Under the pieces are notes generated by a model, which ran no database searches, was not told the DNA's origin, and saw only the letters and a program-made list of their open reading frames with translations. Both the position numbers and the translations under genes were made by a program. From Anaerolineae bacterium (GTDB taxonomy: Bacteria > Chloroflexota > Anaerolineae > J102), in contig JALXCB010000044.1 of assembly GCA_026991225.1 (NCBI GenBank), forward strand, positions 6,490 to 70,489: a stretch of DNA of 64,000 bases. The letters run 5' to 3'. Positions 1-40,538 of this stretch are shown here, piece after piece. Position 1 is the stretch's first letter. Each line of letters opens with the position of its first letter.

Positions 1-1299
1 CTGGATGTCGACGCGGGGCGTCTTTATGTGGCCGATGGCGAGGATGGCCTGCGCATCTACGATGTGAGCCAGCCCGATGCGCCCCAGGAGATAGGCCACT
101 GGCCCGCGGTGGGCGTAAGCCGGGATGTCACGGTCGCGGGCGGATACGCCTACGTGGCCGATTTTCATCAAGGGTTGCGGGTGGTGGATGTGAGCGACGC
201 GGCCGCGGCGCAAGAGGTGGCGGCCCTGACCTGGCCGGGCCGGGTGTATGGCGTAGGCAAAGCCCTGCGGCTGCATCGCAGCGGCCAGCGATTGTATGTG
301 GCGTTGCGAGAGGATGGTCTGGCCGTGGTGGATGTCAGCGATCCCGCTTATCCCCAGCCCCTGGGCCGCTGGGGCCAGGGGGAGGATGTGCGGGATGTGA
401 CCATGACCCCTGCGGGCTTGGCCCTGGCCGACCGGAATCGCGGCGTCCATCTGCTGGATGGGAGCGATCCCGCGGCGCTCAGCCGTCTGGGCGGCTACGA
501 GACCCTGGGGTGGGTGTCGGGTGCGATCCTGACCGATGGCGAGGGCGAAGCCGCACCCTATGTCGCCGCGGGCGGGGATGTGAAATCCCTGACCTGGAGC
601 CCGGAAACAGGGTTCCACCTCGTGGGATGGATGACCACGCCCGGCGTCGCCCATGACGTGGCCCTGCTGCCCGCAGGCCACGCAACGAAACTGGCCGTGG
701 CCGATGGCCCGGTGTGGAACGGCCATGATTGGGAGCCGGGCGGCCTGCGGGTGCTGGACGCGGATTCGGGCCAGGAACTCGCCTTTTATGCCAGCCGGGC
801 TCAGGCCGTGGCCGTGACCGTGGCCGGAGAGCGGGTGTATCTGGCTGATGATGCGGACGGCGTGCATGTCTATGAGCGGGCGGGGGATGGGCTGGTGGAA
901 AGCCAATGGCTGGACTGGCCCGGACACATTCGCGACCTAGCGTTCACCTCTCGTGGGGCATGGGTGGCCCTGCCCGGCCAGGGCGTGGTGGAAACCGCGG
1001 CCGATTTGCCGCCCACGTTCCAGGCCCGCTTCCGTTATGATGGCGTGCTGCGGGTGCAGGGGCTGACCGTCAACGGCAGCCAATTGCTGGTGACGGAAAG
1101 CCTGCCCCACGGGGATCCTTTGCTGTGGGGGCGGCGCTTCCCCAGCCGCATCCACGTGCTGGATATCTCGCGTCCGGGGCAGGTTGTGAGCCAGGGCGAG
1201 GCCGCCACGCCGGGCGAAGCCCTGGACCTGACCGTGAGCCGGGGGTTCATCTTCCTGGCCGCCGGCGACGCGGGCCTGCTGGTCTACGCGCCAGAATGA
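1..1299 (+). CDS. LVIVD-repeat beta-propeller protein (5' partial, runs off window start)
   Basis: Open frame from nt 1; repeated motifs YAYVADFHQGLRVVDVSD / LYVALREDGLAVVDVSDP typical of LVIVD (PF08309) repeats. Confidence 0.7.
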   Translation: MDVDAGRLYVADGEDGLRIYDVSQPDAPQEIGHWPAVGVSRDVTVAGGYAYVADFHQGLRVVDVSDAAAAQEVAALTWPGRVYGVGKALRLHRSGQRLYVALREDGLAVVDVSDPAYPQPLGRWGQGEDVRDVTMTPAGLALADRNRGVHLLDGSDPAALSRLGGYETLGWVSGAILTDGEGEAAPYVAAGGDVKSLTWSPETGFHLVGWMTTPGVAHDVALLPAGHATKLAVADGPVWNGHDWEPGGLRVLDADSGQELAFYASRAQAVAVTVAGERVYLADDADGVHVYERAGDGLVESQWLDWPGHIRDLAFTSRGAWVALPGQGVVETAADLPPTFQARFRYDGVLRVQGLTVNGSQLLVTESLPHGDPLLWGRRFPSRIHVLDISRPGQVVSQGEAATPGEALDLTVSRGFIFLAAGDAGLLVYAPE

Positions 1300-1504
1300 A
1301 GCCGGAGGGCCAGAGGTCAGAGCTACAGAGGTCAGAGCCGCAGAAGCCAGAAGGCCAGAGTGCCAGAAGGCCAGAAAGCCAGAGGGACAGAAGGCCAGAG
1401 GCCCGGCCCCCTGAACACTGAAAACTGAACACTGAACACTCCCCCACCTCCCCTGAAACCCCCATTGACAATTAGCCATTGACCATTCCCCAAAGGAGCT
1501 TCCC
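1300..1504. repeat. intergenic cassette: (GGCCAGARG/GTCAGAGGT)n 9-mer minisatellite + CTGAACACTGA heptamer block + (CATTGACAATTAGC)n promoter-proximal repeat
   Basis: About 11 nine-mer units at 1300-1405; heptamer block 1411-1440; about 1.5 units of the TTGACA-containing 14-mer at 1465-1490. Confidence 0.8.
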
Positions 1505-2635
1505 ATGAACCGCACGCATCTCCGCCTCCTCCCTCCCCTGCTGCTAGCCGCGCTGGTGGCCCTCCTCCTGGCCGGGCTGGCCGCGGCGGGCGGACCGGGC
1601 GTCGGGCCCGCGGCCGCGCCTCCCATTCCCGAGACGAACATCACCTTCGACAGCGACGTCCTCTCCGTGGCCGTCCAGGGCAATTACGCATACGTGGGTT
1701 TGGAATCGGGCGTGGTCATCCTGGACATTACCAACCCCCTTCAGCCGGTGCGACGCGGCTTTTTGGACACCAGCGTGGGCTTCCCACCTTATGCCATTAC
1801 TTCTCCACGATACCTTCAAATTGAAGGGGATCTGCTAGTGATCTCGAATGGCTCCCTTATTGCCACAGTCGATGTGAGCGACTCTGACCATCCCACGCTT
1901 CTTTCGCCTTATCAACAGTATACGACTTATGCCGTTCCTTTTAAACTACTCAATCGCTATCTCTATATCGTTGAGACGGGGAAGTTCCATATCTTCGACC
2001 TACACGATCCCACTCAAATACAGGAAATTTATAAGCTTGATGATGAACGCCTTTTCGCTGATATAGATAGTATGGACGCAGAGACACACCCTTTAGATGG
2101 GCGTACCTATGTGTACATGGTTGGGTACTCACTTTGCTCTCCCGCTGGATGCCCTGGGGGCAATTTTTTGATGATGGATGTTACTAACCTGACCAATCCA
2201 CAGATATTACCTCAAGCTATTTCAATCATGGGGGTCTCACCAGCAATCCGAGTGGAGCAAACGTATGCCTACATCATTGATTCTGATTTGACGATTTATG
2301 ACATTTCGGATCCCTCTTCGTTCCAGCTCGCGGGTAACTATTATGAGGACAACGCAATCTTTGTGGGGCTTGAGGTGTCAAACAACAAATTGGCTACGGG
2401 GGACCAATATGGCTCCGTCCTATATCAATTCGACACCACAGATAAAGTACATCCAAAGAAAATAGCTGTTCATAGGAATGTCAACGGATACCCTGATGCA
2501 TTTTCTGTGAACAGTGACTGCGTCTTCATACCAGAAAAGGAACGAGGTCTACACATCCTTTGTGAAGCTCAGCTCCCTCCACACCCCCCCGTCCAGGTCT
2601 GGCTGCCTATGGTGCAGGCCCGGTTTGAGCGATGA
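1505..2635 (+). CDS. secreted LVIVD-repeat protein, tandem paralog 1
   Basis: Signal peptide MNRTHLRLLPPLLLAALVALLLAGLAAAGG; LVIVD-like repeats (YAYVGLESGVVILDITNP); SD AAAGGAG 8 nt upstream of ATG; conserved N- and C-termini shared with the next two genes. Confidence 0.75.
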   Translation: MNRTHLRLLPPLLLAALVALLLAGLAAAGGPGVGPAAAPPIPETNITFDSDVLSVAVQGNYAYVGLESGVVILDITNPLQPVRRGFLDTSVGFPPYAITSPRYLQIEGDLLVISNGSLIATVDVSDSDHPTLLSPYQQYTTYAVPFKLLNRYLYIVETGKFHIFDLHDPTQIQEIYKLDDERLFADIDSMDAETHPLDGRTYVYMVGYSLCSPAGCPGGNFLMMDVTNLTNPQILPQAISIMGVSPAIRVEQTYAYIIDSDLTIYDISDPSSFQLAGNYYEDNAIFVGLEVSNNKLATGDQYGSVLYQFDTTDKVHPKKIAVHRNVNGYPDAFSVNSDCVFIPEKERGLHILCEAQLPPHPPVQVWLPMVQARFER

Positions 2636-2804
2636 AGGCCGGGGCAGAGGTCAGAGGTCAGAGGCCAGAAGGCCAGAGGGCCAGAGGCCCGGCCCCCTGA
2701 ACACTGAAAACTGAACACTGAACACTCCCCCACCTCCCCTGAAACCCCCATTGACAATTAGCCATTGACAATTAGCCATTGACCATTCCCCAAAGGAGCC
2801 TCCC
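2636..2804. repeat. same intergenic cassette, second copy (about 6 nine-mer units, about 2.5 14-mer units)
   Basis: Read directly; same architecture with different unit counts. Confidence 0.8.
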
Positions 2805-3944
2805 ATGAACCGCACGCATCTCCGTTTCCTCCCTCCCCTGCTTTTGGCCGCACTGGTGGCCCTCCTCCTGGCCGGGCTGGCCGCGGCGGGCGGGCCGGGC
2901 GTCGGGCCCGCGGCCGCGCCCCGCCTCGATCCCCCCGCGCCCGTCAACATCACCTTCGACAGCGACGTTTGGAGCGTTGCAGTACAAGAGAACTATGCTT
3001 TCGTAGGACTGGAAAAGGGGGGCGTCATCATCCTCGATATCACCAATCCTCTCCGTCCCACCGTCGTGAGCACGTTCGATGATCCTGATTCCTATGGCTT
3101 GTATTATGTGGATGACCTCTTCCCCAACGGGGATATCCTGGTCATTCCAGTCGGTTCTGTCTTCTATATCGTCGATATCAGCGATATTACCCACCCGTCC
3201 TGGCTCAGTTATCGCCATCCCGCGGCTTACGAACTGAAGGCCATGGCTCTTTACGACCAGCGGGCTTACGGCCTGGGGCCGGATTCCTTCGAGATTTGGG
3301 ACCTCCAGGACCCCTCCTCGCCTCAGTTGTTGTACGGCATGCGGGATCAGTACCACCGCCTCTTTGCGGATATGCAACAGATCGCGGTCGCTCGCAACCC
3401 CGCAGATGGCCGCATCTACGCCTACATGACCGGCGAGCCCCTCTGTTTCCACGACTGCGTAGGCAATGGCCTGGTTTTCATGGATGTCACCGACCCCTCC
3501 CAGCCCCAAGTCGTCTACACTTCAAGGTGGAATGGAGTCACGCTGGCCGCCCAAGAGGAGTATCTCTATTGGAGCGATTCGGATGCCAGTTTGCAAATCC
3601 TTGGTCTTACCGACCCGCGACAACCAGAACTGTTAAGTCGCATCGATTTAGCCGATATTGGCTTTGCGATGGATAGGAAGGGGAATAGGCTTTTCCTTGC
3701 CCTGGCATACGGAGAAGATGGCCAGATCGATGTTATAGATGTGACTAACAAGACGAAGCCCACTTCCATGACAAGGTATGAAGACGTGAAACACGGGAAA
3801 AGTCTATCTCATTCGGATGAAACAGGCTGCCTGTTCGTGGCGGAGCTTAGCCGCGGCCTGCGCATCCTTTGCGACATCAACGCCAATCCGCACCCCCCCG
3901 CCCTGGTCTGGCTGCCTATGGTGCAGGCCCGGTTTGAGCGATGA
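2805..3944 (+). CDS. secreted LVIVD-repeat protein, tandem paralog 2
   Basis: Near-identical signal peptide and C-terminus VWLPMVQARFER to paralog 1; LVIVD repeats. Confidence 0.75.
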   Translation: MNRTHLRFLPPLLLAALVALLLAGLAAAGGPGVGPAAAPRLDPPAPVNITFDSDVWSVAVQENYAFVGLEKGGVIILDITNPLRPTVVSTFDDPDSYGLYYVDDLFPNGDILVIPVGSVFYIVDISDITHPSWLSYRHPAAYELKAMALYDQRAYGLGPDSFEIWDLQDPSSPQLLYGMRDQYHRLFADMQQIAVARNPADGRIYAYMTGEPLCFHDCVGNGLVFMDVTDPSQPQVVYTSRWNGVTLAAQEEYLYWSDSDASLQILGLTDPRQPELLSRIDLADIGFAMDRKGNRLFLALAYGEDGQIDVIDVTNKTKPTSMTRYEDVKHGKSLSHSDETGCLFVAELSRGLRILCDINANPHPPALVWLPMVQARFER

Positions 3945-4183
3945 AGGCAGGAAGGCCAGAGGTCAGAGGTCAGAACCACAGAGGTCAGAGGCCAGAAGGC
4001 CAAAAGGCCAGAAAGCCAGAGGGCCAGAAGGTCAGAGGCCCGGCCCCCTGAACACTGAAAACTGAACACTGAACACTCCCCCACCTCCCCTGAAACCCCC
4101 ATTGACAATTAGCCATTGACAATTAGCCATTGACAATTAGCCATTGACAATTAGCCATTGACCATTCCCCAAAGGAGCCTCCC
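3945..4183. repeat. same intergenic cassette, third copy (about 11 nine-mer units, about 4.5 14-mer units)
   Basis: CATTGACAATTAGC repeated 4 times plus a partial unit at 4100-4165. Confidence 0.8.
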
Positions 4184-5317
4184 ATGAACCGCTCGCATCT
4201 CCGTTTCCTCCCTCCCCTGCTGCTGGCCGCACTGGTGGCCCTCCTCCTGGCCGGGCTGGCCGCGGCGGGCGGGCCGGGCGTCGGGCCTGCGGCCGTCCCC
4301 CGCCTGGATCCCCCCGCGCCCGTCAACATCACCTTCGACAGCGACGTCCTTTCCGTGGCCGTCCAGGGCGATTACGCGTATGTGGGTTTGGAAAAAGCAG
4401 GCGTAGCCGTTCTTGACATTTCCGATCCCTTGCACCCCATTATCATAAGCACCTTCGATGATCCCGATCCTTCCGGGCTGAATTATGTGGATGAGCTCAT
4501 TCCCAATGGGGATATCCTGATCATTCCCTATGGCTCTGTCTTTTACGTCGTCGATATCAGCGACCCCGCTCATCCCGCCTGGCTCAGTTATAGTCATGAT
4601 GCGGCTTACGAACTGAAGGCCATGGCCCTTTACGACCAGCGGGCTTACGGCCTGGGACCGGACTCCTTCGAGATTTGGGACCTCCAGGACCCCTCCTCGC
4701 CCCAGTTGTTGTACAGCATGCGGGATCAGTACCACCGCCTCTTTTCGGATATGCAGCAGATCGCGGTCGCCCGCAACCCCGCAGATGGCCGCATCTACGC
4801 CTACATGACCGGCGAGCCCCTCTGTTTCCACGACTGCATAGGCAATGGCCTGGTTTTCGTGGATGTGACCGACCCCTCCCAGCCCCAAGTCGTCTACACT
4901 TCAAGGTGGAATGGAGTCACGCTGGCCGCCCAAGAGGAGTATCTCTATTGGAGCGATTCGGATGCCAGTTTGCAAATCCTTGGTCTTACCGACCCGCGAC
5001 AACCAGAACTGTTAAGTCGCATCGATTTAGCCGATATTGGCTTTGCGATGGATAGGAAGGGGAATAGGCTTTTCCTTGCCCTGGCATACGGAGAAGATGG
5101 CCAGATCGATGTTATAGATGTGACTAACAAGACGAAGCCCACTTCCATGACAAGGTATGAAGACGTGAAACACGGGAAAAGTCTATCTCATTCGGATGAA
5201 ACAGGCTGCCTGTTCGTGGCGGAGCTTAGCCGCGGCCTGCGCATCCTTTGCGACATCAACGCCAATCCCCAACCCCCCGCCCAGGTCTGGCTGCCCCTAA
5301 TTGGAATCCAGGGATAG
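4184..5317 (+). CDS. secreted LVIVD-repeat protein, tandem paralog 3
   Basis: Same signal peptide; 3' two-thirds almost identical at DNA level to paralog 2 (3296-3944 vs 4675-5270). Confidence 0.75.
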   Translation: MNRSHLRFLPPLLLAALVALLLAGLAAAGGPGVGPAAVPRLDPPAPVNITFDSDVLSVAVQGDYAYVGLEKAGVAVLDISDPLHPIIISTFDDPDPSGLNYVDELIPNGDILIIPYGSVFYVVDISDPAHPAWLSYSHDAAYELKAMALYDQRAYGLGPDSFEIWDLQDPSSPQLLYSMRDQYHRLFSDMQQIAVARNPADGRIYAYMTGEPLCFHDCIGNGLVFVDVTDPSQPQVVYTSRWNGVTLAAQEEYLYWSDSDASLQILGLTDPRQPELLSRIDLADIGFAMDRKGNRLFLALAYGEDGQIDVIDVTNKTKPTSMTRYEDVKHGKSLSHSDETGCLFVAELSRGLRILCDINANPQPPAQVWLPLIGIQG

Positions 5318-5340
5318 CTCATTCTGCCATCAGGAGGTGC

Positions 5341-8300
5341 ATGGTGAACGTCATCCGACAACGTTTGCTCATGGTCATTATGTTGGTCGCGTTGGCAGGC
5401 ATTTTGCTTCATGTGACCGCCAGGTCCAGCGATCTCGCCGTGGCCAGGAACCAGGCCGCGACGCCGCCGACCGCAACCACGCAGCCCAAGCTGAAGGAAT
5501 TCCTCGATGAAGCGCCTTTTCCTCGAATTTATGCTTTCTATCACAACGCGACATCCTGTGTTTCTGGGGGCCAAAAGGCATACTTTGTTGACCAGATGAA
5601 GTATGTCAATGTGGCGGAACTGCACTATCAGTTGGGCGGCGCCAAAACCGAATCCAGTTGGTGGAGATATCGATATTCGAAAATCGATGTCAATGACAAT
5701 GGCAATTGCGATGACCCGGATGACATGCGTGTCGTCGACTGGTTGGAAAAGCAATGGAGAGATATGCCCGCTAACGCCCACGGCGTCTCAATTCCCCACT
5801 ATCAACTGGCGTTTCTGCCTCTTTGGTATTTCAAAGAGGATGATGCCAGTGGTTTCGACGTTATGCACCGCAGAACCATCGATGACTGTGACGCTGCTTA
5901 CACCTTCATTCCTACACCCACCCCTACCCCCACGAATGCAACGCCTCCAACCCCTGGAGGACCGCCCACGTCCACGCCAGTACCCACCGCAACCCCTGAC
6001 GCTGACTATCTTGAGAAACAGGTCTGGGCCTTGCACGCAGCAACGAATGGCGATGTCATGAGATGGCGGGATGGCGCCAATTTGGCGTTAATCAACGTTT
6101 ACGCAGGCACGCCCATTGCGACTTCGGTGGTCATCCGTTGCGACACCCGCATTACCGAAGGACTGATCCCGGCAGAAACACCGGCGCCGCGCACCTATCA
6201 CGAATGGATGCCACTGTGGGTGGATGCCCGCATCGGCGAAACGCAGTTGGATAACGACCCAAATGAAATCAATCCATGGGATGGCATCCGCATCGACTCT
6301 CAGGCCAATCTCTTCTCCTGGGCCAGGCAAGCGGATTTCGATCTCGATGGACATCTCGATATACGGAAAGAAGAGAGTGGTGGATATGACGACAAGAATG
6401 ATACAGCTTTTGGGCGCCATTATCTCGATGATCTCTATCAGCAGGGAGTGGACAAGCTATTCCAAAACATCTATCAATATCATCCTGGCGAATGGCTCAT
6501 GGGAGGCAATGACGCCTGGCATCCCAATGGGAGCAGCCCCGATGACCCCTCTGGCTTTGGCGAACTGCCTAACATGCATTTCACTATCGCTGAAAACTGG
6601 ACGAAGGATTGGGGGAGTAATGGGCAGTACCATTTTATGCGCTGGCCCAATCCCGATGACGGAGGTTATTCTTCCAACGTAACATTCAGCAAAGCCGTTC
6701 GCATCTGGGACAACTGGGCCCATCACGGAAACGGTCGCAAAGGCTATGTCATTCTATCGAAATGTGACGATGCAGCGAATGATTGCTTGTCCCTTCCCAG
6801 CCAGACCGATGAGACAACCTATGGCTGGGATGATATGCACCGGGAATTCCGCTTCAGCCTGGCTGCGGCGCTGATGCTGGATGCATATCATGCGTTTACG
6901 GGCGCGGGCTATGACATGACGCCCTACTGGTACGACGAGTACGCGGTCATTTGGGATGACAGCAAAGCCCAAGCCGCCCGCACCAACGATGAAAAAGCCA
7001 AAGGCATTGGCTGGCTGGGATATCCGATTTCTGCTCCTTTAGAAGTGGACAGTAGCGGACATGTAACGGGTGTCAACTTGTGTTCGGCAATTGATGGCTG
7101 GCGCAAGGCAACGCCTACTCCCACGCCCGCTCCCGGTGAGACTCCGACACCTAAACCTGCAACAGCCTGGATTCGTTACTTCGAGCATGGCGTGGCCATT
7201 TTGAATCCATCCTCCAATGATATTACAGTGGAGTTGGACCCAAACACGACATATTACCGTATTCAGTGTTCCAGTGGAGGCGGCTCAACGGTTAACGCCG
7301 AGGTTGATTGCCACACCAATAACGGCCAGCCAGTGGACAACCATCAGGTGACGGTTGAGGCGCACGATGGTCTGCTCTTGTATGGCGAAGCGAATCAAAC
7401 GGATAAAATCGCCATTAGCGCATCGCAATATGACATCCAATATTGGGAGGGGCCGGAGTTATTGATCGATGACCGGGGCGAACAAACATGGCAATGGGGC
7501 AATAGAACGGACGAGACCAGTCCCACCATCAGCATCGCGAACGATGAACTGCGCGAGGTGGTTTCCGGCAGGTTGATTTTTCACATCAACGACCCCGATT
7601 TGCAAATGGATATCAAAAATGGAGACATTGTCGACGCCTTTTTGAGCTTACGAACAGATGCCAATCTCAATGACGCATCCATGTGGCTTATCGCTCAAAA
7701 ATCCGCCGAAGACGCTGAGGAGAATTTTCAGAAAATCTTATGGATTGATCCCAATCTGCAGGGACAGGGATGGCATCGCTCACCATCATTGCGAGAGGCT
7801 TTGATCGAGCTTGCCGACCAATCTGGATGGAATGGTCATGTCGAATTTTTCCTTGTTCCCACAGCCTTCAACCACCAATTGGTCTTCGACGCTTACGATA
7901 AAGCAGTGACGAACGCCCCTACACTGGTGATTCTCCGGAAAAAAGTGAGAAGCACCCCATGCGTTACGGAGAATACAACGGGGCCTTATCAGGCCACCTA
8001 CCAACACGGCGTCAACGGCTACTATGGCGGCGAGGACACTTACATCGTCACCACCGACTGGGAGCCCCCCACCACCCACGACACCTTCCCCGCGCTCTAC
8101 ATCCGCGTCAACTACCCCAACGAGCAAATTCACTCCTCCCTCATCCGTTTCAACAACGCCACGCTCCCCGCCGGTGCGGAGATCGTCAAGGCCCAGCTCG
8201 ACATGTTCTACGCTGGGCAATCGGTCAATGGCGGCGACCTCACCGCCTATGTGGCCTACACCAAAGAGCCCTGGAAAGCCTCCGAGACCACCTGGGTCAA

Positions 8301-8574
8301 CTTCCAGACTTCCCTCTACTGGAATGCTACAGGCGTGAAGGGCGTGGACGACCGGGATCCCCACGTCTATGTCCTGCCCGTCAACTACCAGCAAGTGGGC
8401 AACTGGCTCAGCTTCAACGTCACCCAGGTGGTGAAGGACACGCCGGGGGATGATTACGATTTCTTCTTCTACGGCTCCTTCGACGGCGTCAACAAGAACA
8501 TCTACTTCCATTCCAACGACTACTGGAAGGCGAGCGAGCGGCCCAAGCTCACCATCTGGTATCGGATGCCGTAA
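5341..8574 (+). CDS. large N-terminally anchored extracellular protein of unknown function with Pro/Thr-rich linkers (possibly carbohydrate-active)
   Basis: ATG at 5341 preceded by AGGAGG; N-terminal TM helix; PTPTPTPTNATPPTPGG and TPTPTPAPGETPTPKP linkers; no family recognised by eye. ORF-track start at 5248 overlaps the upstream gene and is less likely. Confidence 0.6.
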   Translation: MVNVIRQRLLMVIMLVALAGILLHVTARSSDLAVARNQAATPPTATTQPKLKEFLDEAPFPRIYAFYHNATSCVSGGQKAYFVDQMKYVNVAELHYQLGGAKTESSWWRYRYSKIDVNDNGNCDDPDDMRVVDWLEKQWRDMPANAHGVSIPHYQLAFLPLWYFKEDDASGFDVMHRRTIDDCDAAYTFIPTPTPTPTNATPPTPGGPPTSTPVPTATPDADYLEKQVWALHAATNGDVMRWRDGANLALINVYAGTPIATSVVIRCDTRITEGLIPAETPAPRTYHEWMPLWVDARIGETQLDNDPNEINPWDGIRIDSQANLFSWARQADFDLDGHLDIRKEESGGYDDKNDTAFGRHYLDDLYQQGVDKLFQNIYQYHPGEWLMGGNDAWHPNGSSPDDPSGFGELPNMHFTIAENWTKDWGSNGQYHFMRWPNPDDGGYSSNVTFSKAVRIWDNWAHHGNGRKGYVILSKCDDAANDCLSLPSQTDETTYGWDDMHREFRFSLAAALMLDAYHAFTGAGYDMTPYWYDEYAVIWDDSKAQAARTNDEKAKGIGWLGYPISAPLEVDSSGHVTGVNLCSAIDGWRKATPTPTPAPGETPTPKPATAWIRYFEHGVAILNPSSNDITVELDPNTTYYRIQCSSGGGSTVNAEVDCHTNNGQPVDNHQVTVEAHDGLLLYGEANQTDKIAISASQYDIQYWEGPELLIDDRGEQTWQWGNRTDETSPTISIANDELREVVSGRLIFHINDPDLQMDIKNGDIVDAFLSLRTDANLNDASMWLIAQKSAEDAEENFQKILWIDPNLQGQGWHRSPSLREALIELADQSGWNGHVEFFLVPTAFNHQLVFDAYDKAVTNAPTLVILRKKVRSTPCVTENTTGPYQATYQHGVNGYYGGEDTYIVTTDWEPPTTHDTFPALYIRVNYPNEQIHSSLIRFNNATLPAGAEIVKAQLDMFYAGQSVNGGDLTAYVAYTKEPWKASETTWVNFQTSLYWNATGVKGVDDRDPHVYVLPVNYQQVGNWLSFNVTQVVKDTPGDDYDFFFYGSFDGVNKNIYFHSNDYWKASERPKLTIWYRMP

Positions 8575-8595
8575 AAACGCCTGTTGCGAGGTAAC

Positions 8596-8735
8596 TACCT
8601 TGACAATGTCACATTACGTCATTCCGAGGGAGCGAAGCGACCGAGGAATCTAGCCCGCAGGGCGCTTCGCTAGATTCCTCCGCCCTTCGGTCGTCGGAAT
8701 GACGTGCTTGGAGGTAATTTGACATTGTCGAACTA
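8596..8735. repeat. large imperfect palindrome / stem-loop downstream of the 1108-aa gene
   Basis: Arms GGTAACTACCTTGACAATGTCACATTACGTCATTCCG and its imperfect reverse complement flank an internally palindromic loop (GAGGAATCTAGC...GCTAGATTCCTC). Confidence 0.6.
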
Positions 8736-8744
8736 CTCAGGTGT

Positions 8745-8949
8745 CGCCACCACTTTTTGCCGCGAAGACACGAAGGAAACGAGGGCGCAAAGTCATCCAA
8801 AAAAGGTAACTGCTAAGGTAGTTGGCCCCAATCGCCCCTTTTTTGCCACGAAGACACGAAGGAAACGAAGGCGCGAAGTCATTCAAAAAAGATTTTATCC
8901 GTGTTTCCTCGTATCCGTGTCGAGTGAACAGGGCTACGTTAGCAGTTAT
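8745..8949. mobile_element. MITE-A variant copy (8806-8949) preceded by a partial tandem half-copy (8745-8805)
   Basis: GTAACTGCTAAGGT ... ACGTTAGCAGTTAT; internal sequence matches the outer element at 24178; lies between convergent gene ends. Confidence 0.7.
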
Positions 8950-8953
8950 AGTT

Positions 8954-9496
8954 TCATGTTGCTGACTGCGCGCCATAATGAAACGCGCCGGGAAAATCTT
9001 CGGCAACTTGTTTCTGCTTGCCGATCCACGTTTCGATATCGAGACGAATCACGGCTGTGATCTTCAGGTCTTCGGGTTGGGCGGGAAGGTAATCCGCGTC
9101 TGGTTGCAAATGGGGCGCGTACTTGTCCATGATCATCTGCAAGGCCCGTGCCGCTTCCTCCCCCTCCACCAGGCTCGCCCGCCCGAACAGCATGACGCTG
9201 GCGTATTCCACGCTGAAATTCAGCGCCCGTTTCGCGGGCAGCAACCGGCCCATGCGGAAGACCGTGGCCGACGCCTTGGGATGGTTCCGGGCCAGCGCCG
9301 CGGTGCGCCCCTGGTTGGTGGCGTGGATGTACACCACGCGCCGGGCTTCGTCAAAGGCATACAGCGTGGGGAAGAGAAAGGGCTGATCGTCCTGGCAAAA
9401 GCCCAGCGTGATCACGGCTTCCTCACGCAAAAAATCGGTGATCCAGGCGTCATCGGTGATGGCCCGGTCCTTGCGTCGAATGTTGGTCAGACTCAT
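8954..9496 (-). CDS. pyridoxamine 5'-phosphate oxidase-family FMN-binding protein
   Basis: ~180 aa [33 protein letters not shown]...; PNPOx-like split-barrel pattern; start ATG overlaps pdxT stop (ATGA). Confidence 0.7.
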
Positions 9497-10101
9497 GCTG
9501 TTTGCACCATGTGGAGGAAGTAGCGGTGGAAGCGGAGGTCGTCGCTGAGTTCGGGGTGGAAGGCGGTGCCCAGGAGATGGCCTTGTCGTACGGCCACAAT
9601 GGGCCCGTTCTCGGGCAGTCGGGCCAGCACCTGCACCTCCGGCCCGACTTCGACCACCGCGGGGGCGCGGATGAAGATGGCGTGGAAGGGGCCGTCGGGG
9701 TCTTCGGGGCGGGCGACTTCGGCCAGCGCGGGCACGTCCAGATCGGCTTCGAAGCTGTCCACCTGCCGCCCGAAAAAATTCCGATCTACGGTAATGTCCA
9801 GCCCGCCGATGAGGGGCTGCCCGCCCTTCTTCTGCCGCACGGCCCGATTCGCCAGCAGGATGAGGCCGGCGCAGGTGCCCCAGGCTGGCTTCTGACGGGT
9901 GAAAGCCTTCAGCGGCTCCAGCAGACCGAAGGATTCGGCCAGCTTGCCCATGGTGGTGGACTCGCCGCCAGGGATGATGAGCGCGTCCAAATCGTCGAGA
10001 TGCTCGGGCAGACGCACCTCGGGCGCGTCCACGCCCAGGGCTTGGAGCTTGAGGATATGTTCTCGAAACGCCCCTTGCAGGGCCAAAACGCCGATTTTCA
10101 T
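9493..10101 (-). CDS. pdxT: pyridoxal 5'-phosphate synthase glutaminase subunit PdxT
   Basis: [16 protein letters not shown]...[10 protein letters not shown]...GTCAG; class I glutamine amidotransferase of PdxT type. Confidence 0.9.
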
Positions 10102-10150
10102 AGGCTAAACGTCCTCTTGCATCGGAAATGATAACGGAGTAAAATGTGGT

Positions 10151-10390
10151 ATGACCATCGTCACATGGCATGAAATGAAACAATCTTTTAGAAAATATCT
10201 GCAACGAGTCAAACAGGGGGAAACGTTGCTGGTGGTGGAGGACGGACGCCCCGTAGCCGAAATGCGGCCCGTTGTGGAGGATGAAGCGCGCCTGAGGCCC
10301 TTCGGATTATGCGCTGGCGAATTCCATGTGCCTGACGATTTCGATAAACCACTTCCTGAAGAAGTCCTCGCATTATTTGAAGGGCGATGA
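10151..10390 (+). CDS. type II antitoxin (Phd/YefM-like, VapB partner)
   Basis: 79 aa, MTIVTWHEMKQSFRKYLQRVKQGETLLVVEDGRPVAEM; 4-bp overlap with the downstream PIN toxin. Confidence 0.6.
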   Translation: MTIVTWHEMKQSFRKYLQRVKQGETLLVVEDGRPVAEMRPVVEDEARLRPFGLCAGEFHVPDDFDKPLPEEVLALFEGR

Positions 10391-10791
10391 GGTTATTACT
10401 CGACACCCACATCTTTCTGTGGTACATCGCCGGCGAAAGGAAGATCAGCGAATCGATCCTTGCCATGATCCGTGATCCGGACAATCAGGTGTATCTGAGT
10501 GTGATTTCGGAGTGGGAAATCATCATCAAGCATCAGTTGGGACGGCTTCCTTTGCCTGCATCACCCGGCGTCTACATTCCTGCACAACGTCGCAGACACC
10601 GCATTGACGTCCTATCGCTGGATGAGGATGCAGTGAGTGCATTGGGGGAATTACCCGCAATTCATCGCGATCCATTTGATCGCATGTTAATCAGTCAGGC
10701 AATGTATCATGGATTGATTCTGGTCACTGTTGATAGAGTCGTCATGAAATATGGGGACGTGATGAACGTGCGGATGCTGTTGGCGAATTGA
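10387..10791 (+). CDS. vapC: PIN-domain toxin VapC
   Basis: MRLLLDTHIFLWY... PIN acidic residues; followed by hairpin plus T-tract terminator. Confidence 0.8.
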   Translation: MRLLLDTHIFLWYIAGERKISESILAMIRDPDNQVYLSVISEWEIIIKHQLGRLPLPASPGVYIPAQRRRHRIDVLSLDEDAVSALGELPAIHRDPFDRMLISQAMYHGLILVTVDRVVMKYGDVMNVRMLLAN

Positions 10792-10795
10792 AAAA

Positions 10796-10838
10796 ACAAG
10801 ACCCCGAAAGACTCCGAGGTCTTGTTTCTTCTTATGCG
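10796..10838 (+). terminator. Rho-independent terminator after vapC
   Basis: AACAAGACCCCGAAAGACTCCGAGGTCTTGTT hairpin followed by TCTTCTT. Confidence 0.7.
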
Positions 10839-10961
10839 TGTCTTTGGGTTGCGGCTTTGCCGCGATACGGACTACGCATCACGCATTACGTTGCCTGGTT
10901 TCCCGCGACAGAATGGCTTGGCTAGGATTTATCACTCCGACGAGCTCCTCTCCATCGCCAC

Positions 10962-11849
10962 TTACCAGCCCCGATACGCGATGCGCTCTTCCTCGGGCAT
11001 GGATTCCACCGTGCGCCCGACCATGGGCTCGCCCAGATTGCGGCTCACCTCGGCCAGGATGGCGGGGTCGCGGTAGTGGGTGACCGCTTTGACGATGGCC
11101 GCGGCCCGCTTGGCGGGATTGCCGCTCTTGAAGATGCCCGAGCCCACGAACACGCCGTCCACGCCCAATTGCATCATCAGGGCCGCGTCCGCGGGCGTGG
11201 CGATGCCGCCCGCCGCAAAATTCACCACGGGCAGCCGTCCCATCTCTGCGGTCAGCTTGACGAGCTGATAGGGCGCGCCGAGGTTTTTGGCGTACGCGTA
11301 CATTTCCTCAGGGGCCATGGTTTGCAGGCGGCGAATTTCGCCCAACACGGCCCGGGCGTGGCGCACGGCCTCGACCACGTCGCCCGTGCCCGCCTCGCCT
11401 TTGGTGCGGATCATGGCCGCGCCTTCGTTGATGCGGCGCAGGGCCTCGCCCAGGTTGCGGCAACCGCACACAAAAGGCACTTTGAAGTCCCATTTGTTGA
11501 TATGGTGCTCCTCGTCGGCCGGGGTCAGCACCTCGCTCTCATCGATGAAGTCCACGCCCAGATACTCCAGGATCTGCGCCTCGACGAAATGGCCGATGCG
11601 CACCTTGGCCATGACGGGAATGGTCACCGCGTCCATGATCTCGAGGATTTTCTCGGGATCGCTCATGCGGGCTACGCCGCCCTCAGCCCGGATGTCGGCC
11701 GGGACGCGCTCCAGCGCCATGACGGCCACCGCGCCCGCCTCTTCGGCGATGCGGGCCTGCTCCGCATTGGTCACATCCATGATCACGCCGCCTTTCAGCA
11801 TCTCGGCCAGGCCCGATTTGACAGTAAATGTGCCGGTAATGGGTTCCAT
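10962..11849 (-). CDS. pdxS: pyridoxal 5'-phosphate synthase lyase subunit PdxS
   Basis: [54 protein letters not shown]...; highly conserved PdxS/SNZ. Confidence 0.95.
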
Positions 11850-12119
11850 AAGTGGATTTTTCCTCCGAATTTTTTATTTAATAGGAATAGCATCTGGGTT
11901 TTGAAGCTGTCCCGCCCACAGGACGAGACCAAAAGCGCTTCTCAACTGACCACTGATTACTGATCACTGGTCACTCCAATTGTACCCCTTTTCCCCGCGT
12001 TTCGTCCAGACGCCAGCAGGAAAAAACGCTCTCATGGATTGTTTTCTTCGGAAATTTCGGGCCTTCCTGTGCTCATGATACAATAATAGGTCTGGAAATC
12101 GGTCGATGCAAGGATTTGC

Positions 12120-15100: not shown

Positions 15101-15458
15101 GCCCATCACCGCCCGCGTGCCCATCACGCAACCCGACGGCACGGTCACGTACGAACAACGTCCCATCAGCACGGTCGAGGCCGATCCCGACGATCCCAAT
15201 CGCATCATTCTTACTGCCACCAACGGTTTCGGCATCATCCACGACACCAAAGGTTACACCGAAACGCACGTCATCAAGGCCGTGGCCTACGACGTGGCCG
15301 GAAACAAGGCCGAAAGCCAGCCCGTGCGCATCTTCGTCATCCACAAGGAAGGCAAAGGTCCCAAGCCGCGCGGGCAGGAAGGCCGCCTCCCCGATCTGGA
15401 TGACCCCACCCGTTACGCTCTCCGCCCCATTGTATCATGGAACGAACGGCATCTTTGA
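12120..15458 (+). CDS. bifunctional class A penicillin-binding protein (PBP1A: GT51 transglycosylase + transpeptidase) with long C-terminal Ig-like extension
   Basis: GT51 motifs ALEDRSFWENPGIN, SSITQQLVKN; transpeptidase SSFKP (SxxK) and KTGTT; ~400-aa C-terminal extension. Confidence 0.9.
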   Translation: MKRLTDQATSRLTDHPMNLPSKIYLHRRRQERLHRAQMPAWQKLLGVAAIALFVFITLTVTATASVAAVAGGVYYYFTRNLPDPSAIVTKQENFETVKIYDRTGKVLLYESIDPRPFRGDRTYVTLDQISPYLINATVALEDRSFWENPGINLRGIGRAFVQNLQGGAIQGASSITQQLVKNVIIPPEERYQRSYTRKIKEMLMALKITQKYDKTQILEWYLNNNFYGNFSYGIESAAQTYFGKPAKDLNLAEAAMLAALPQFPGLNPIQAPEDAKRRQRKVLQAMVEAGYITQEQADEAYAQELDVRESALERFDNDIAPHFALYVLDQLKKEFNTPEDPYFIWRNGLTVRTTLDVDIQHYVTCVARQRVAHLAHEDPTIPGCPDLDPEPFLQSGKHSKIDHNVSNAAVVVLAPKTGEILSMLGSLDYNNREIDGEVNIALADRQPGSSFKPITYLTGFSQGLTAATVAWDVRQVFPDAVEPYTPENYDRKYHGPVPLRVALQRSYNIPAVWVMSQVGVKNVVNMAHRLGVTSLNKDYYGLSLTLGGGEVKLLDMAYVFATFANMGVMKGEPVLPQDLRPGYRTLDPVAILEVKDREGNIVKEYEGPQEQRVISEQLGYLLDNVLSDPRPRPPAFGTFAQYLELPDRPIIAKTGTTNDFRDGWTLGASPQYAVGVWVGNADNTPMESTSGSVGASPIFHDIMAYLHKDKPVEKWEEPDGFVRRTVCYESGLLATDICPRRYTEIFIDGTEPKEYDNFWQVFEVNKLNGKLATPYTPPDLIERRVYPVFPPVAKDWAQEQAELGKIQLPPTEYDDTFGPVFTDEEVAIAKPAPFSYIKGQVEIWGNARSGDFRLYQLHFGQGLQPQTWTQIGPDHYNQVDKGVLEYWDVSGLSGPYTLRLSVVENSGNVRQVAIPITVDNTPPTVVLSTPENGKVYVKEDDEWVNINALATDDWAMDRVVFYLDDTPLITTTVSPYSAKWTITMSDTVPTLDMEPITARVPITQPDGTVTYEQRPISTVEADPDDPNRIILTATNGFGIIHDTKGYTETHVIKAVAYDVAGNKAESQPVRIFVIHKEGKGPKPRGQEGRLPDLDDPTRYALRPIVSWNERHL

Positions 15459-15808
15459 TGCATACGCCATCGGCGATACCCTTTCTGGATGAAATCGTCG
15501 CCCGATTAGAAAGCATCGATCCAGAGAAAATCATCCTTTTCGGCAGCCAGGCGGAAGGTCGCGCCGACCCATGGAGCGATTTGGACCTGATTGTTGTGAC
15601 AAGCGACGACCGAATGCCTGCTACGTATCGGGAGAAAGAAGAAATTTACCTGCAAGTCTCGCGCCTGATTCGAGACATCCGACAGAAAATCCCCATCGAT
15701 CTCATCGTGCACACCCGGCCCATGCATGAGCGCTTTCTCACCATGAACAGTCTCTTCGCACAAGAAGTCCGGGAAAGAGGCCTGGTGCTCTATGAAAAAG
15801 ACCACTGA
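15458..15808 (+). CDS. minimal nucleotidyltransferase (MNT) antitoxin-type protein
   Basis: LFGSQAEGRADPWSDLDLIVV nucleotidyltransferase motif; ATG overlaps PBP stop (TGATG). ORF-track alternative start 15437. Confidence 0.75.
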   Translation: MHTPSAIPFLDEIVARLESIDPEKIILFGSQAEGRADPWSDLDLIVVTSDDRMPATYREKEEIYLQVSRLIRDIRQKIPIDLIVHTRPMHERFLTMNSLFAQEVRERGLVLYEKDH

Positions 15809-16187
15809 AGAATGGCTGGCCAAGGCCGCGGAAGACCTTTTGGCTGCGGAACTCCTGCTATCGCAATGGGAACTGACCAATATCGTGGCTTTTCATGCGC
15901 AGCAAACGGTTGAAAAGGCGTTCAAAGCCGCGATTGAAGAACTGGAACTTGGTCTAATTCGCACCCACAGTCTGACGCGACTCTACCAGCTCATCGAATC
16001 AGAATTTCCCGTAGTTGATGACCCTGACATGTTAGACCGTCTTGATGCGGTTTACATTGAGGCGCGCTATCCCAGCGAGCTTGGCCTGATCCCATCGGGC
16101 AAACCAACCAGTGAGGAAGCGGCTGCTTTTCATGCGTTTGCCACCCGTGTTTTGAAGCAGATTCAAACAGCCCTGACCCAACGCTAA
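15792..16187 (+). CDS. HEPN-domain protein (partner of MNT)
   Basis: 131 aa helical protein with GLIRTHSL HEPN-like motif; overlaps MNT gene end. Confidence 0.75.
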   Translation: MKKTTEEWLAKAAEDLLAAELLLSQWELTNIVAFHAQQTVEKAFKAAIEELELGLIRTHSLTRLYQLIESEFPVVDDPDMLDRLDAVYIEARYPSELGLIPSGKPTSEEAAAFHAFATRVLKQIQTALTQR

Positions 16188-30013: not shown

Positions 30014-30313
30014 ATGACCGAGTTCATCACGACAAATATCCGTCTTCCAGTACAATTGCATCGCGAGCTAAAACGTCGCGCGGCGGAGGAGAACAAAAGC
30101 ATGGCGCAAGTGTTGCGCGAGGCTGCGGTGCAATACATCGCGTCAGCCAAAACTTCCAATCACGAGGAGATGGAAGCAAGAGATGATGATCCTTTGTGGC
30201 TGATCGGGACTGATCCTGTGGATCTGGGGGTGACGGATGCTTCCGTGAACCACGATGTCTATCTTTATGGTCCGCTTTCGGATTCGGCCAAAGCTGAGAT
30301 CACAGAAAAATGA
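30014..30313 (+). CDS. ribbon-helix-helix-type antitoxin (VapB-like)
   Basis: NIRLPVQLHRELKRRAAEENKSMAQVLREAAVQY RHH pattern; 4-bp overlap with PIN gene. Confidence 0.55.
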   Translation: MTEFITTNIRLPVQLHRELKRRAAEENKSMAQVLREAAVQYIASAKTSNHEEMEARDDDPLWLIGTDPVDLGVTDASVNHDVYLYGPLSDSAKAEITEK

Positions 30314-30729
30314 GACCCCTTTTCGTTGATACCGCAGCCTGGTTGGCATTGGAATCTCGAAGGGATCAATACCATGATGTCGCCTTTGCGTTTGCACAAA
30401 ATCAGGCACGAGCATTTCAATGGGTCACGACGAATTGGATATTATCCGAAACCGTGACGATGCTACGCAGACGCGCCAACCATGCCATTGCCGTCCGTTT
30501 TATGGAGCGAGTGCGCGCAAGTAAACGATTGCAGATTGTACGTATTGAGCCTCCCCACGAGGAAAGAGCCTGGGTAATTTTCAAGCGTTATGCCGACAAA
30601 GACTTTGGATTTGTGGATTGCACCAGCTTTGCCGTTATGGAGACCTTTGGCATTGCCGAGGCCTTTTCGTTTGACCATCATTTCCGGCAATTTGGATTTC
30701 AAACGCTTCCCCTTCATGCGTTGAGGTAA
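30310..30729 (+). CDS. vapC: PIN-domain toxin VapC
   Basis: [23 protein letters not shown]...; stop 2 nt before the start of the MCM B12 subunit. Confidence 0.75.
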
Positions 30730-39231: not shown

Positions 39232-40521
39232 TCACTCCATGCGAGGCAGGAACTGGCGGTAATCCAGCGCCGGGGCGCGGTCCTGCGCCAGGCCCAGGAA
39301 GGGCGTCTGTTCAAAGTCGGGGAAGACCTCGTCCAATTGGGCGTTGAGCAGCCGTTTCTGCACGATCTCGCTGAGTACGGTGCGATAGTCGGTGGTGATG
39401 GCCAGGTCGCCCCGGTCGAGATGCTCTTCCTCCAGGCCCGGCCAATCGCCATACACCCGGCCGCCGTTGACGCCCCCGCCCAAAAGGAACATGACGTTGC
39501 CGTGGCCGTGATCCGTGCCCTGGCTGGCGTTCTCCTGCACCCGCCGCCCGAACTCGCTCATGGTCACCAGGGTGATGCGGTGGAAATCGTCCTGCATATC
39601 GGTGTAGAACGCGTTCAGGCCCGCGGCCAGCTCCGCCAGCAGATCCGCCATAGCGCCCTCAACGCTCCCCTCCTCCGCGTGGGTGTCCCATCCCCCCAGG
39701 TCGATGCAGGCCACCTCCAGGCCCATGTCCGCCCGGATGATCTGCGCGATCTGCTTCAAGCCCAGGCCGAAGAAATCCTCGCCATAGTCCGCGCCGTGCT
39801 GCGGTTCATATTGCGAAGGGTCCGCGGCTTCCAGGAAATCGAAGGCGTGGAACACCTGCTGGCCCTCCTGGTCGATCCAGTCATCGCCCAGGTAGAGGCT
39901 TTGCAAGGTCTGCTGCACCCGTGCGATCTCTCGCTCGTCGCCGTTGAGGTGGAAATCCGCGATGGATTTGAGGGCCAGGGCGGGGATAGGCCCGTGCAGG
40001 GAGGTCTGCAAGATGTTGCCCATGCCCACGGCCCGGAAGGGTGAGTCGTTTTGCGTGGTCATGCTGGCCAGATGCCGGGCCAGCCAGCCGGAGGAAATGG
40101 TTTTGTTGCCAGGGACGCCCCGCTCCATGAAGTCTTGCGCGTCGAAATGGGAACGGGAGGGGTCGGGGGAGCCAGATGCGTGGACGAAGGCCAGGTCGCC
40201 CTCGTCATAGATGTCCTTCAGCGGCTCCAGCGCGGGATGCAGGCCGAAAAAGCCGTCCAGGTCGATGGCGCCGTTGGGCTGATCGGGGTCGGGGATGCGG
40301 ATGGTGGGGCGCAGGTCGTGATAGCGGGTCTCGGCGTGGGGCGTGACGGCGTTGAGGCCATCCATAGCCCCGCGCAGGAAGATGCAGATGAGGATGTCGC
40401 CGGCGGGCCCGCCCGCGGCCGGGCGAAAGGCCATGCGCGGCATCCAGGCGGGGCGGTTGATGACGCCTGTCAGCGCGGTGAGGCCGGAAAGTTTGAGGAA
40501 ATTGCGTCGCGTCAGGTTCAT
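39232..40521 (-). CDS. DUF1501 protein with twin-arginine signal
   Basis: MNLTRRNFLKLSGLTAL Tat motif; DUF1501 pattern (GGWDTH..., GTDHGHG). Confidence 0.8.
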   Translation of the reverse strand: MNLTRRNFLKLSGLTALTGVINRPAWMPRMAFRPAAGGPAGDILICIFLRGAMDGLNAVTPHAETRYHDLRPTIRIPDPDQPNGAIDLDGFFGLHPALEPLKDIYDEGDLAFVHASGSPDPSRSHFDAQDFMERGVPGNKTISSGWLARHLASMTTQNDSPFRAVGMGNILQTSLHGPIPALALKSIADFHLNGDEREIARVQQTLQSLYLGDDWIDQEGQQVFHAFDFLEAADPSQYEPQHGADYGEDFFGLGLKQIAQIIRADMGLEVACIDLGGWDTHAEEGSVEGAMADLLAELAAGLNAFYTDMQDDFHRITLVTMSEFGRRVQENASQGTDHGHGNVMFLLGGGVNGGRVYGDWPGLEEEHLDRGDLAITTDYRTVLSEIVQKRLLNAQLDEVFPDFEQTPFLGLAQDRAPALDYRQFLPRME

Positions 40522-40538
40522 GAGTCGGCTCCTTGGGA

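Follow-up and report, generated by a model that had tools for sequence, protein, structure and literature searches.

Surface-protein families in which conserved ends enclose a hypervariable centre, and which vary by gene conversion, include Msp2/P44 of Anaplasma, pilE/pilS of Neisseria and babA/babB of Helicobacter. Phase-variable contingency loci are marked by simple-sequence repeats upstream of surface-protein genes. The replacement flexible islands of aquatic prokaryotes are exchanged by homologous recombination (Lopez-Perez, Martin-Cuadrado & Rodriguez-Valera 2014, PMC4033161). A locus reminiscent of all three lies in a 64,000-nucleotide stretch of a metagenome-assembled contig from an Anaerolineae bacterium (GenBank assembly GCA_026991225.1, contig JALXCB010000044.1, positions 6,490 to 70,489 of the forward strand), referred to here as the window. 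Three tandem genes in this stretch, par1, par2 and par3, encode predicted secreted β-propellers of the LVIVD repeat family, and the central part of par1 has a far lower GC content than its two ends. With a probability of roughly 0.7, this is a hypervariable locus for exposed proteins that is diversified by homologous recombination, the par1 core being the variable blades 2-7 of a tandem propeller family.

Recombining genes in bacteria have a higher GC content, and GC-biased gene conversion has been proposed to operate in these organisms (Lassalle et al. 2015, PMC4450053); bacterial core genes are also GC-richer than accessory genes (Bohlin et al. 2017, PMC5303225). It was in cell-surface proteins that the LVIVD repeat was originally identified (Adindla et al. 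2004, PMC2447325). The original prediction for the window, made from its letters, had noticed a low-GC core between conserved ends in par1 and likened it to cassette-type recombination or to a horizontally acquired segment recombined into a resident gene. This interpretation is partly supported by the analysis presented below.

A synonymous composition step inside par1

Sliding-window analysis confirms the low-GC core and its coordinates: the interval 1800-2560, predicted to have about 45% GC, contains 44.9%, against a window average of 61.2% (standard deviation 5.0 percentage points among 760-bp segments). The lowest 760-bp value of the whole 64 kb, 44.7%, belongs to the segment beginning at 1786; segments with a GC content of 0.46 or less make up 0.15% of all, and each one overlaps the low-GC region of par1. 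The deviation is significant, and the AT-rich run quoted from the core is present there. The figure of about 65% GC that had been given for the surrounding DNA holds true for the upstream gene and the shared end modules but not for par2, par3 and the next gene, whose own GC content is 52-58%.

At third codon positions the GC content (GC3) of par1 starts at 0.86 over codons 1-66, falls to 0.46 within the core and recovers to 0.64 towards the tail, and the N-terminal end differs strongly from the core (Fisher's test, p = 1.8e-9). A two-break maximum-likelihood model divides the gene at change points behind codons 93 (nt 1784) and 359 (nt 2582) into segments with a GC3 of 0.85, 0.45 and 0.82; the log-likelihood ratio is 26.9 versus a highest value of 11.5 among 100 permutations. 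The drop sits mainly at synonymous sites. The amino-acid make-up of the core is ordinary for the genome, and since its FYMINK and GARP fractions resemble those of ordinary genes, the contrast is synonymous and an amino-acid-driven drop can be ruled out. Typical genes of the window have a GC3 of 0.78-0.87, and putative intergenic DNA is 52% GC, matching the GC content of the par1 core. It is important to point out that the core is not compositionally foreign; rather, its synonymous sites resemble the least-constrained DNA of the genome.

A stable profile shared by the whole family

The codon alignment comprises the 15 family genes for which DNA is available, drawn from several assemblies and at least four genomes (family members carry P numbers below, and related loci L numbers). 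The same high-low-high GC3 profile is found in all 15, with values of 0.78-0.91 at the N-terminal end and 0.42-0.69 in the core; the C-terminal end returns to 0.67-0.92 in 14 of them, the exception being P0009 at 0.35. Across 27 non-overlapping windows of 15 codons, mean GC3 closely follows mean pairwise nucleotide identity (Spearman rho = 0.89, p = 7e-10). Rather than being uniform in composition, the par1 orthologues P0001 and P0003 share the profile of par1, in loci of ~61% GC.

The profile is also old. Between par1 and P0001 the synonymous divergence (dS) is ~0.78 in the first half of the core, yet core GC3 is 0.48 in both. This first half is 79-90% identical at the nucleotide level to P0001 and P0004, whereas identity to known sequences reaches only 48-69% in the second half. 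The ratio of non-synonymous to synonymous divergence (dN/dS) between par1 and P0001 is 0.07 in the first core half and 0.16 in alignment columns 181-260, with dS saturated beyond; within one core type it lies at 0.06-0.16 wherever dS is measurable, which argues that the cores are functional and constrained by purifying selection. Core substitutions polarised with outgroups and pooled over eleven branches are balanced, with 122 AT>GC against 115 GC>AT changes, whereas a two-state model of GC3 relaxing from ~0.5 toward 0.85 should give an excess of AT>GC changes of ~5.7-fold. Overall, the low GC3 of the core is family-wide, conserved in orthologues, at compositional equilibrium and equal to intergenic GC. 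A search with the core only (266 aa) against 5.8 billion proteins returned six matches, all of them family members with matching ends and no outside donor, and a whole-protein search for a foreign donor likewise found family members only.

Exchange of cores and blade blocks

The predicted arrangement of conserved ends around a replaceable core is borne out by related loci. L005 is 94.5% identical to positions 1-1698 of the window, continues with an unalignable core of another type and then resumes at 96% identity over 8134-8570, while L003 is 88% identical over 2-2125. Between par1 and P0003 the mismatch frequency leaps from 6% to 41% at codon 90 (~nt 1772), and alignments to many loci stop at 1698-1749, where GC3 begins to fall, their ends clustering at 1698-1772. 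Within the 5′ module of par1, windows of 30 codons are 90-99% identical to some other family member. The conserved N-terminus and C-terminal tail are both present as described, the tail region at 2578-2642 being 94% identical to 3887-3951, and par1 is indeed the most divergent of the three paralogues, with 47% amino-acid identity to par2 and 43% to par3.

Comparison of the family members also shows segmental mosaics, in which whole cores and blocks of blades have been exchanged between paralogues and between genomes, with breakpoints recurring at shared modules and short conserved blade motifs. P0004 follows P0001 at 99-100% identity through alignment columns 61-165 and is L004a-like thereafter, at 80-89%. 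For par2, the closest relative over columns 46-150 is P0020 (86-95%), after which the gene is 96-100% identical to par3; the identity of par2 to P0020 reaches 95% over columns 91-120, compared with ~75% in the flanks of those genome lineages. Similarly, dS between par3 and P0011 is ~0.1 up to column 250 and saturated after it. The best breakpoints recur at the motifs F.I.DLHDPT (columns 168-182), DVTDPxxPQ (columns 245-258) and DG(R/H)TYxYM (column 219). Core types are anciently diverged, dS being saturated between them. Signal-peptide variants (MNRTHLRF.. versus MNPRPF..) follow the genome and not the core type, which indicates that the 5′ module is homogenised within genomes.

Two events are recent. 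The genes par2 and par3 share an identical tract of 401 nt (3489-3889 and ~4868-5268); they are near-identical from ~3236 onwards and differ by 23-30% over 2936-3235, the trace of a recent gene conversion between neighbouring copies. In addition, L169 and the window are separated by 20 mismatches over 1336 positions of the upstream gene (1.5%) but by only two in ~2100 nt over 1404-3509 (0.1%; Fisher p = 5e-7). This step in divergence marks a recent recombination with its border at the repeat array, ~1340-1400. The par1 protein is identical on L169 (ENA), L170 (JGI sample 3300028400) and L171 (ENA). These three independent metagenome assemblies keep the order of upstream gene, par1 and par2 at 98.5-99.4% nucleotide identity, and since they are concordant the join within par1 is no assembly artefact. 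The par1 coding sequence (CDS) is free of mismatches in both L170 and L171, and the sole mismatch of the 2.5-kb alignment to L170 falls in the upstream octamer array. The short-read contigs L169 and L170 end inside the identical tract of par2 and par3.

A variable stretch with intragenic borders

The par1 core forms the left-hand portion of a longer variable stretch (~6.3 kb, ~1784-8025) that is low in GC3 and has both of its borders within genes. The stretch is broken by the junction modules and by one block shared between par2 and par3 at a GC3 of 0.8-0.9. Its right-hand part belongs to the gene that follows the array (~5341-8574), the product of which is a secreted protein that has PT-rich linkers and carries a CBM96 domain at its C-terminus; no solved-structure relative of this 1077-aa protein was found. 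From 5341 to 8025 the GC3 of this gene is mostly 0.4-0.85 (typically 0.5-0.65), and the sequence is 54-88% identical to the orthologues in L164 and L165. At 8026, where the CBM96 domain starts, GC3 steps up to 0.80-0.97 and identity to 0.90-0.97. In L001 and L005 the CBM96 segment, with 91-96% identity, stands as a separate small gene of 123 and 182 aa, respectively, and it is also kept in L006; most of the long gene is absent from all three loci. On the left, the upstream LVIVD gene is syntenic and 75-98.5% identical in L001, L003, L005, L006 and L169.

Between these conserved flanks, the content of the locus differs by genome: the window has three family genes and the long CBM96 protein, L005 a single gene of another core type, and L001 one family gene and a different gene of 284 aa. 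The locus thus resembles replacement flexible islands in occupying the same chromosomal position, as defined by the conserved upstream gene, with differing content and likely exposed proteins. Homologous exchange at its borders, a further point of likeness, is indicated by the clustered alignment ends and, in one strain, by the divergence step of L169. Unlike such islands, it measures only ~6 kb and operates on the scale of a gene family, its borders are intragenic, in the first family gene on the left and in the CBM96 protein on the right, and it consists of a tandem family in which the border module recurs at every internal junction.

Protein fold and distribution

All three paralogues score well above the gathering cut-off of the Pfam LVIVD model PF08309 (20.2 bits; Table 1). 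Like other LVIVD proteins they are predicted β-propellers, but they belong to a subfamily of ~375 aa with its own signal peptide, linker and PPxxVWLP tail, present in few Anaerolineae assemblies only. An AlphaFold2 model of par1 built from the family alignment has a predicted local distance difference test score (pLDDT) of 82.4 and a predicted template modelling score (pTM) of 0.80. It is all-β, with ~29 strands in about seven blades, as expected of a propeller built from tandem repeats of ~42-47 aa. A helix at the N-terminus (residues 10-26) is followed by a disordered Pro/Ala linker (27-41) and then by one continuous propeller. The model is confident throughout the low-GC part, where pLDDT is mostly 85-95. 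The predicted continuity of the propeller argues that the low-GC core is integral to the fold and not an insertion. The top Foldseek matches of the model are generic propellers of 7-8 blades with a TM score of ~0.55, and Foldseek and PDB sequence searches pointed to no specific function, returning only generic or designed propellers.

No more than about two dozen relatives exceed 33% identity. All of them are ~375 aa long and share the signal peptide, linker, first blade and PPxxVWLP tail; outside this family the nearest relatives are ~25% identical. Close copies come only from a few Anaerolineae metagenome-assembled genomes and metagenomes (three close genome loci and three close metagenome loci), and no close relatives of par1 were found in viral contigs. 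The family is, by this distribution, apparently confined to a narrow clade of uncultured Anaerolineae. Its members are probably exposed on the cell surface.

The C-terminal motif P-x-P-P-x-x-V-W-L-P-(L/M), at 2573-2620 in par1 and at the equivalent positions of par2 and par3, is near-invariant and lies 6-9 residues ahead of the stop codon in every family member. The residues behind it vary with the downstream content, and no transmembrane segment follows. The motif may be a closing propeller strand or an unrecognised sorting signal. In assembly GCA_054017395.1 (L163, L164 and L166) family members occupy at least three separate loci, with partial copies at contig ends, so the family is dispersed as well as tandem.

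Repeat arrays in the junctions

Each par gene is preceded by a junction with tandem repeats. Octamer arrays (CAGAAGGC / CCAGARGG) at 1341-1403, 2645-2689 and 3943-4040 contain 8.1, 3.6 and 12.9 copies upstream of par1, par2 and par3, respectively. The motif is nearly confined to the junctions, which hold 14 of its 16 matches in the window versus 0.23 expected by chance. All indels between the window and near-identical independent assemblies are gains or losses of 8 bp inside these arrays (at 1354, 1385 and 2670), the one at 2670 in junction 2 distinguishing the window from L171. This suggests slippage and possibly phase-variable expression.

The heptamer array CTGAACA, by comparison, is constant across the junctions at 4.3 copies (1411-1440 in junction 1) and lies upstream of a 14-bp tandem unit, CCATTGACAATTAG. 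This unit contains TTGACA and is found directly upstream of the AAAGGAG ribosome-binding site, at ~1462-1489, 2748-2787 and 4099-4166, in about 1-2, 2.9 and 4.9 copies in junctions 1, 2 and 3. No consensus -10 box follows the units, and a promoter and terminator scan of the junctions gave no more hits than shuffled sequence. The locus is like contingency loci in that the 5′ arrays vary between copies and, among near-identical strains, by exactly one unit; its junctions, however, show no consensus promoter.

A proposed model of recombination and GC enrichment

Each family gene has a variable core between two shared modules. The 5′ module takes in the repeat-rich junction, the ribosome-binding site, the signal peptide, the linker and the first blade, and the 3′ module is the tail; these conserved GC-rich ends serve as recombination handles for core swapping. 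The locus would act as a replacement-type flexible island whose diversity is maintained by selection, for instance from phages or ligands. Homologous recombination would be far more frequent in the shared modules and in the core genome, and this would lead to GC-biased conversion, or to more effective selection, in the shared modules, leaving the divergent cores near an unconstrained, AT-richer baseline. We infer such a recombination-linked GC enrichment of the shared modules from the coupling of GC3 to conservation, which is also seen in the unrelated neighbour gene and thus points to a recombination-linked force. In agreement with GC-biased conversion and with the difference between core and accessory genes, it is the shared, recombining sequence that is GC-richer, at synonymous sites and independently of amino acids. 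Unlike both, the contrast here lies within single genes, in sharp steps from 0.85 to 0.45.

Several observations weigh against this picture. The identical 401-nt tract of par2 and par3 sits in a segment of low GC3, which shows that one recent conversion is not enough by itself to raise GC. The GC3 of ordinary genes (~0.85) is far higher than intergenic GC (0.52), and codon-level selection could be the main force in place of biased conversion. Synteny on the right-hand side stops at the CBM96 domain, which also sets the locus apart from replacement flexible islands. The case for surface exposure and for phage or ligand selection consists of the signal peptide and the pattern of diversity. Finally, the 15 family genes with DNA all come from metagenome assemblies, and repeated families can assemble as chimeras; some of the database mosaics could therefore be artefacts, although par1 itself is confirmed by three assemblies.

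Competing explanations

A recent horizontal acquisition, in which a low-GC donor segment recombined into a GC-rich resident gene and has yet to reach host composition, would account for the most GC-poor 760 bp of the window, with a GC3 of 0.45 against the 0.8-0.87 of typical genes, for the lack of close relatives of the second core half and for the movement of core blocks between genomes, as in par2 and P0020. A foreign island should, however, have a composition that is absent from relatives or drifts towards the host. Here the relatives share the profile, all 15 family genes included, P0001 retains it at a dS of ~0.8, the substitutions are balanced, and the core GC equals that of host intergenic DNA. 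The searches of the core alone and of viral contigs revealed no source outside the family, and no integrase or transposase was found among the scanned open reading frames (ORFs) adjoining the locus. This part of the original prediction is largely refuted, and we regard recent acquisition as very unlikely. An assembly chimera, in which the shared modules let the assembler join the core of a GC-poorer organism to this gene, is less credible still. The contig is metagenome-assembled, and short-read contigs of the family do break at shared modules and at the identical tract of par2 and par3, but L169, L170 and L171 agree, the structural model is a single confident propeller, and orthologues on longer contigs share the profile; for par1 the chimera is rejected on the strength of the three assemblies. 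Targeted hypermutation, for example by a diversity-generating retroelement, might keep a region both variable and AT-rich, and the fold is of a ligand-binding type. Core types nevertheless differ at all codon positions with saturated dS and are conserved within type. No template repeat of any core segment was found within 1-12000, where the only repeats are those between paralogues, and no reverse transcriptase among the ORFs scanned, which cover the first 19 kb and further but not every ORF of the window. A diversity-generating retroelement is rejected on these grounds, and hypermutation in general has next to no plausibility.

The family does have the conserved flanks, the hypervariable centre and the segmental mosaics of classical antigenic-variation cassettes, in which silent donors feed one expression site by programmed gene conversion within a clonal lineage; the concerted evolution of its 5′ region, the 401-nt conversion tract and the upstream arrays of varying copy number add to its likeness to Msp2/P44, pilE/pilS and babA/babB. 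The strict silent-donor sense of the prediction nonetheless fails. A tblastn search of the 64-kb window with 26 family proteins recovered the three full genes and a distant LVIVD gene only, with no silent, partial, truncated or promoterless copies. Every copy, both in the window and in the related loci that were compared, is a full-length gene with a ribosome-binding site and a signal peptide of its own, and par1, par2 and par3 are each closed by a separate stop codon. The mismatch-free par1 CDS of L170 and L171 gives no sign of rapid switching. Unlike the known cassette families, exchange is seen between genomes and paralogues and not within a lineage, and instead of a pathogen the host is an Anaerolineae bacterium that lives free in sediment; a cassette system is accordingly improbable. 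Unlikely, too, is a composition set without recombination by selection or relaxation on the core itself, through slow AT-ending codons that aid folding or export or through weak codon selection. The purifying selection and stable GC3 of the core would fit, and the excess of ordinary-gene GC3 over intergenic GC shows that some force specific to coding DNA acts in this genome. Each step, however, falls within a single mRNA whose expression is shared by its two sides, so codon selection at the level of gene expression cannot yield 0.85 | 0.45 | 0.82. The steps match the boundaries of recombination and conservation and not those of the fold, where blade 1 is high in GC3 and blades 2-7 are low, and the coupling of GC3 to conservation in the unrelated neighbour gene also speaks against selection on the core.

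Organisation of the locus

The features of the locus are collected in Table 1. The upstream ORF (28-1299) scores 87.7 bits with the Pfam LVIVD model and has a GC content of 0.69 and a GC3 of 0.79. The par3 protein is identical to P0014.

Table 1. Features of the par locus, with positions in the window
Feature	Position	Strand	Remarks
3′ part of a larger LVIVD-repeat gene	1..1299	+	conserved GC-rich left flank; full gene 616 aa in L169
Junction module 1, shared intergenic	1300..1504	+	octamer array, heptamer array, CCATTGACAATTAG-type units, AAAGGAG ribosome-binding site (1492-1498)
par1 CDS, 376 aa, predicted secreted or membrane-anchored 7-bladed LVIVD β-propeller	1505..2635	+	Pfam LVIVD 66.5 bits
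par1 conserved high-GC3 5′ module: signal peptide, Pro/Ala linker, first blade	1505..1783	+	GC3 0.85
par1 low-GC3 variable core, blades 2-7	1784..2581	+	GC3 0.45; change points
par1 conserved 3′ tail (..PPVQVWLPMVQARFER*)	2582..2635	+	GC3 0.82
Junction module 2: arrays of junction 1 in other copy numbers	2636..2804	+	repeat counts
par2, mosaic	2805..3944	+	Pfam LVIVD 72.2 bits; GC3 along gene 0.43-0.93
Junction module 3: 12.9 octamer copies, 4.9 copies of the 14-mer	3945..4183	+	repeat counts
par3, last copy of the array, differing tail (..WLPLIGIQG*)	4184..5317	+	Pfam LVIVD 80.0 bits
Variable part, low in GC3, of the gene for the 1077-aa secreted protein that follows the array	5341..8025	+	start codon inferred from the L164 gene call
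Conserved high-GC3 CBM96 domain, right border of the variable stretch	8026..8574	+	Pfam CBM96 aa 929-1103

Beyond the locus, a 52-nt direct repeat is found in the intergenic DNA 3′ of the CBM96 gene, in two copies at 8754-8805 and 8840-8891 that are 92% identical and 86 nt apart. The remaining minima of GC content in the window fall on two PIN-domain toxin genes and on a nucleotidyltransferase/HEPN pair, all at ~0.49-0.52 (10387-10791, 30310-30729 and 15437-16187); accessory genes of this genome are thus generally GC-poor. A DUF1501 gene on the reverse strand (39232-40893) spans a GC3 of 0.40-0.92 across windows of 100 codons and may hold another intragenic composition step.

Significance

A hypervariable, recombining locus for secreted or surface proteins is a familiar concept, and the par1 core is neither an artefact nor a recent foreign insert. 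What looks like a foreign insert is a stable, family-wide compositional split that runs along recombination and conservation boundaries inside genes, a caution against inferring horizontal transfer from GC content alone. Because expression is equal on both sides of the step, the family also offers a compact system in which to study how GC-rich bacteria maintain a high GC3. The hypervariable family of secreted propellers with repeat-rich junctions, from Anaerolineae of sediment-type metagenomes, was previously undescribed.

A more far-reaching possibility, doubtful for now, is that the locus is a contingency locus in which octamer slippage tunes expression and blade shuffling at LVIVD motifs makes new recognition surfaces for phage evasion or varied ligands, the GC3 steps being a read-out of recombination-driven GC enrichment. 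If this were true, biased gene conversion would become testable within single genes, free of confounding by expression level.

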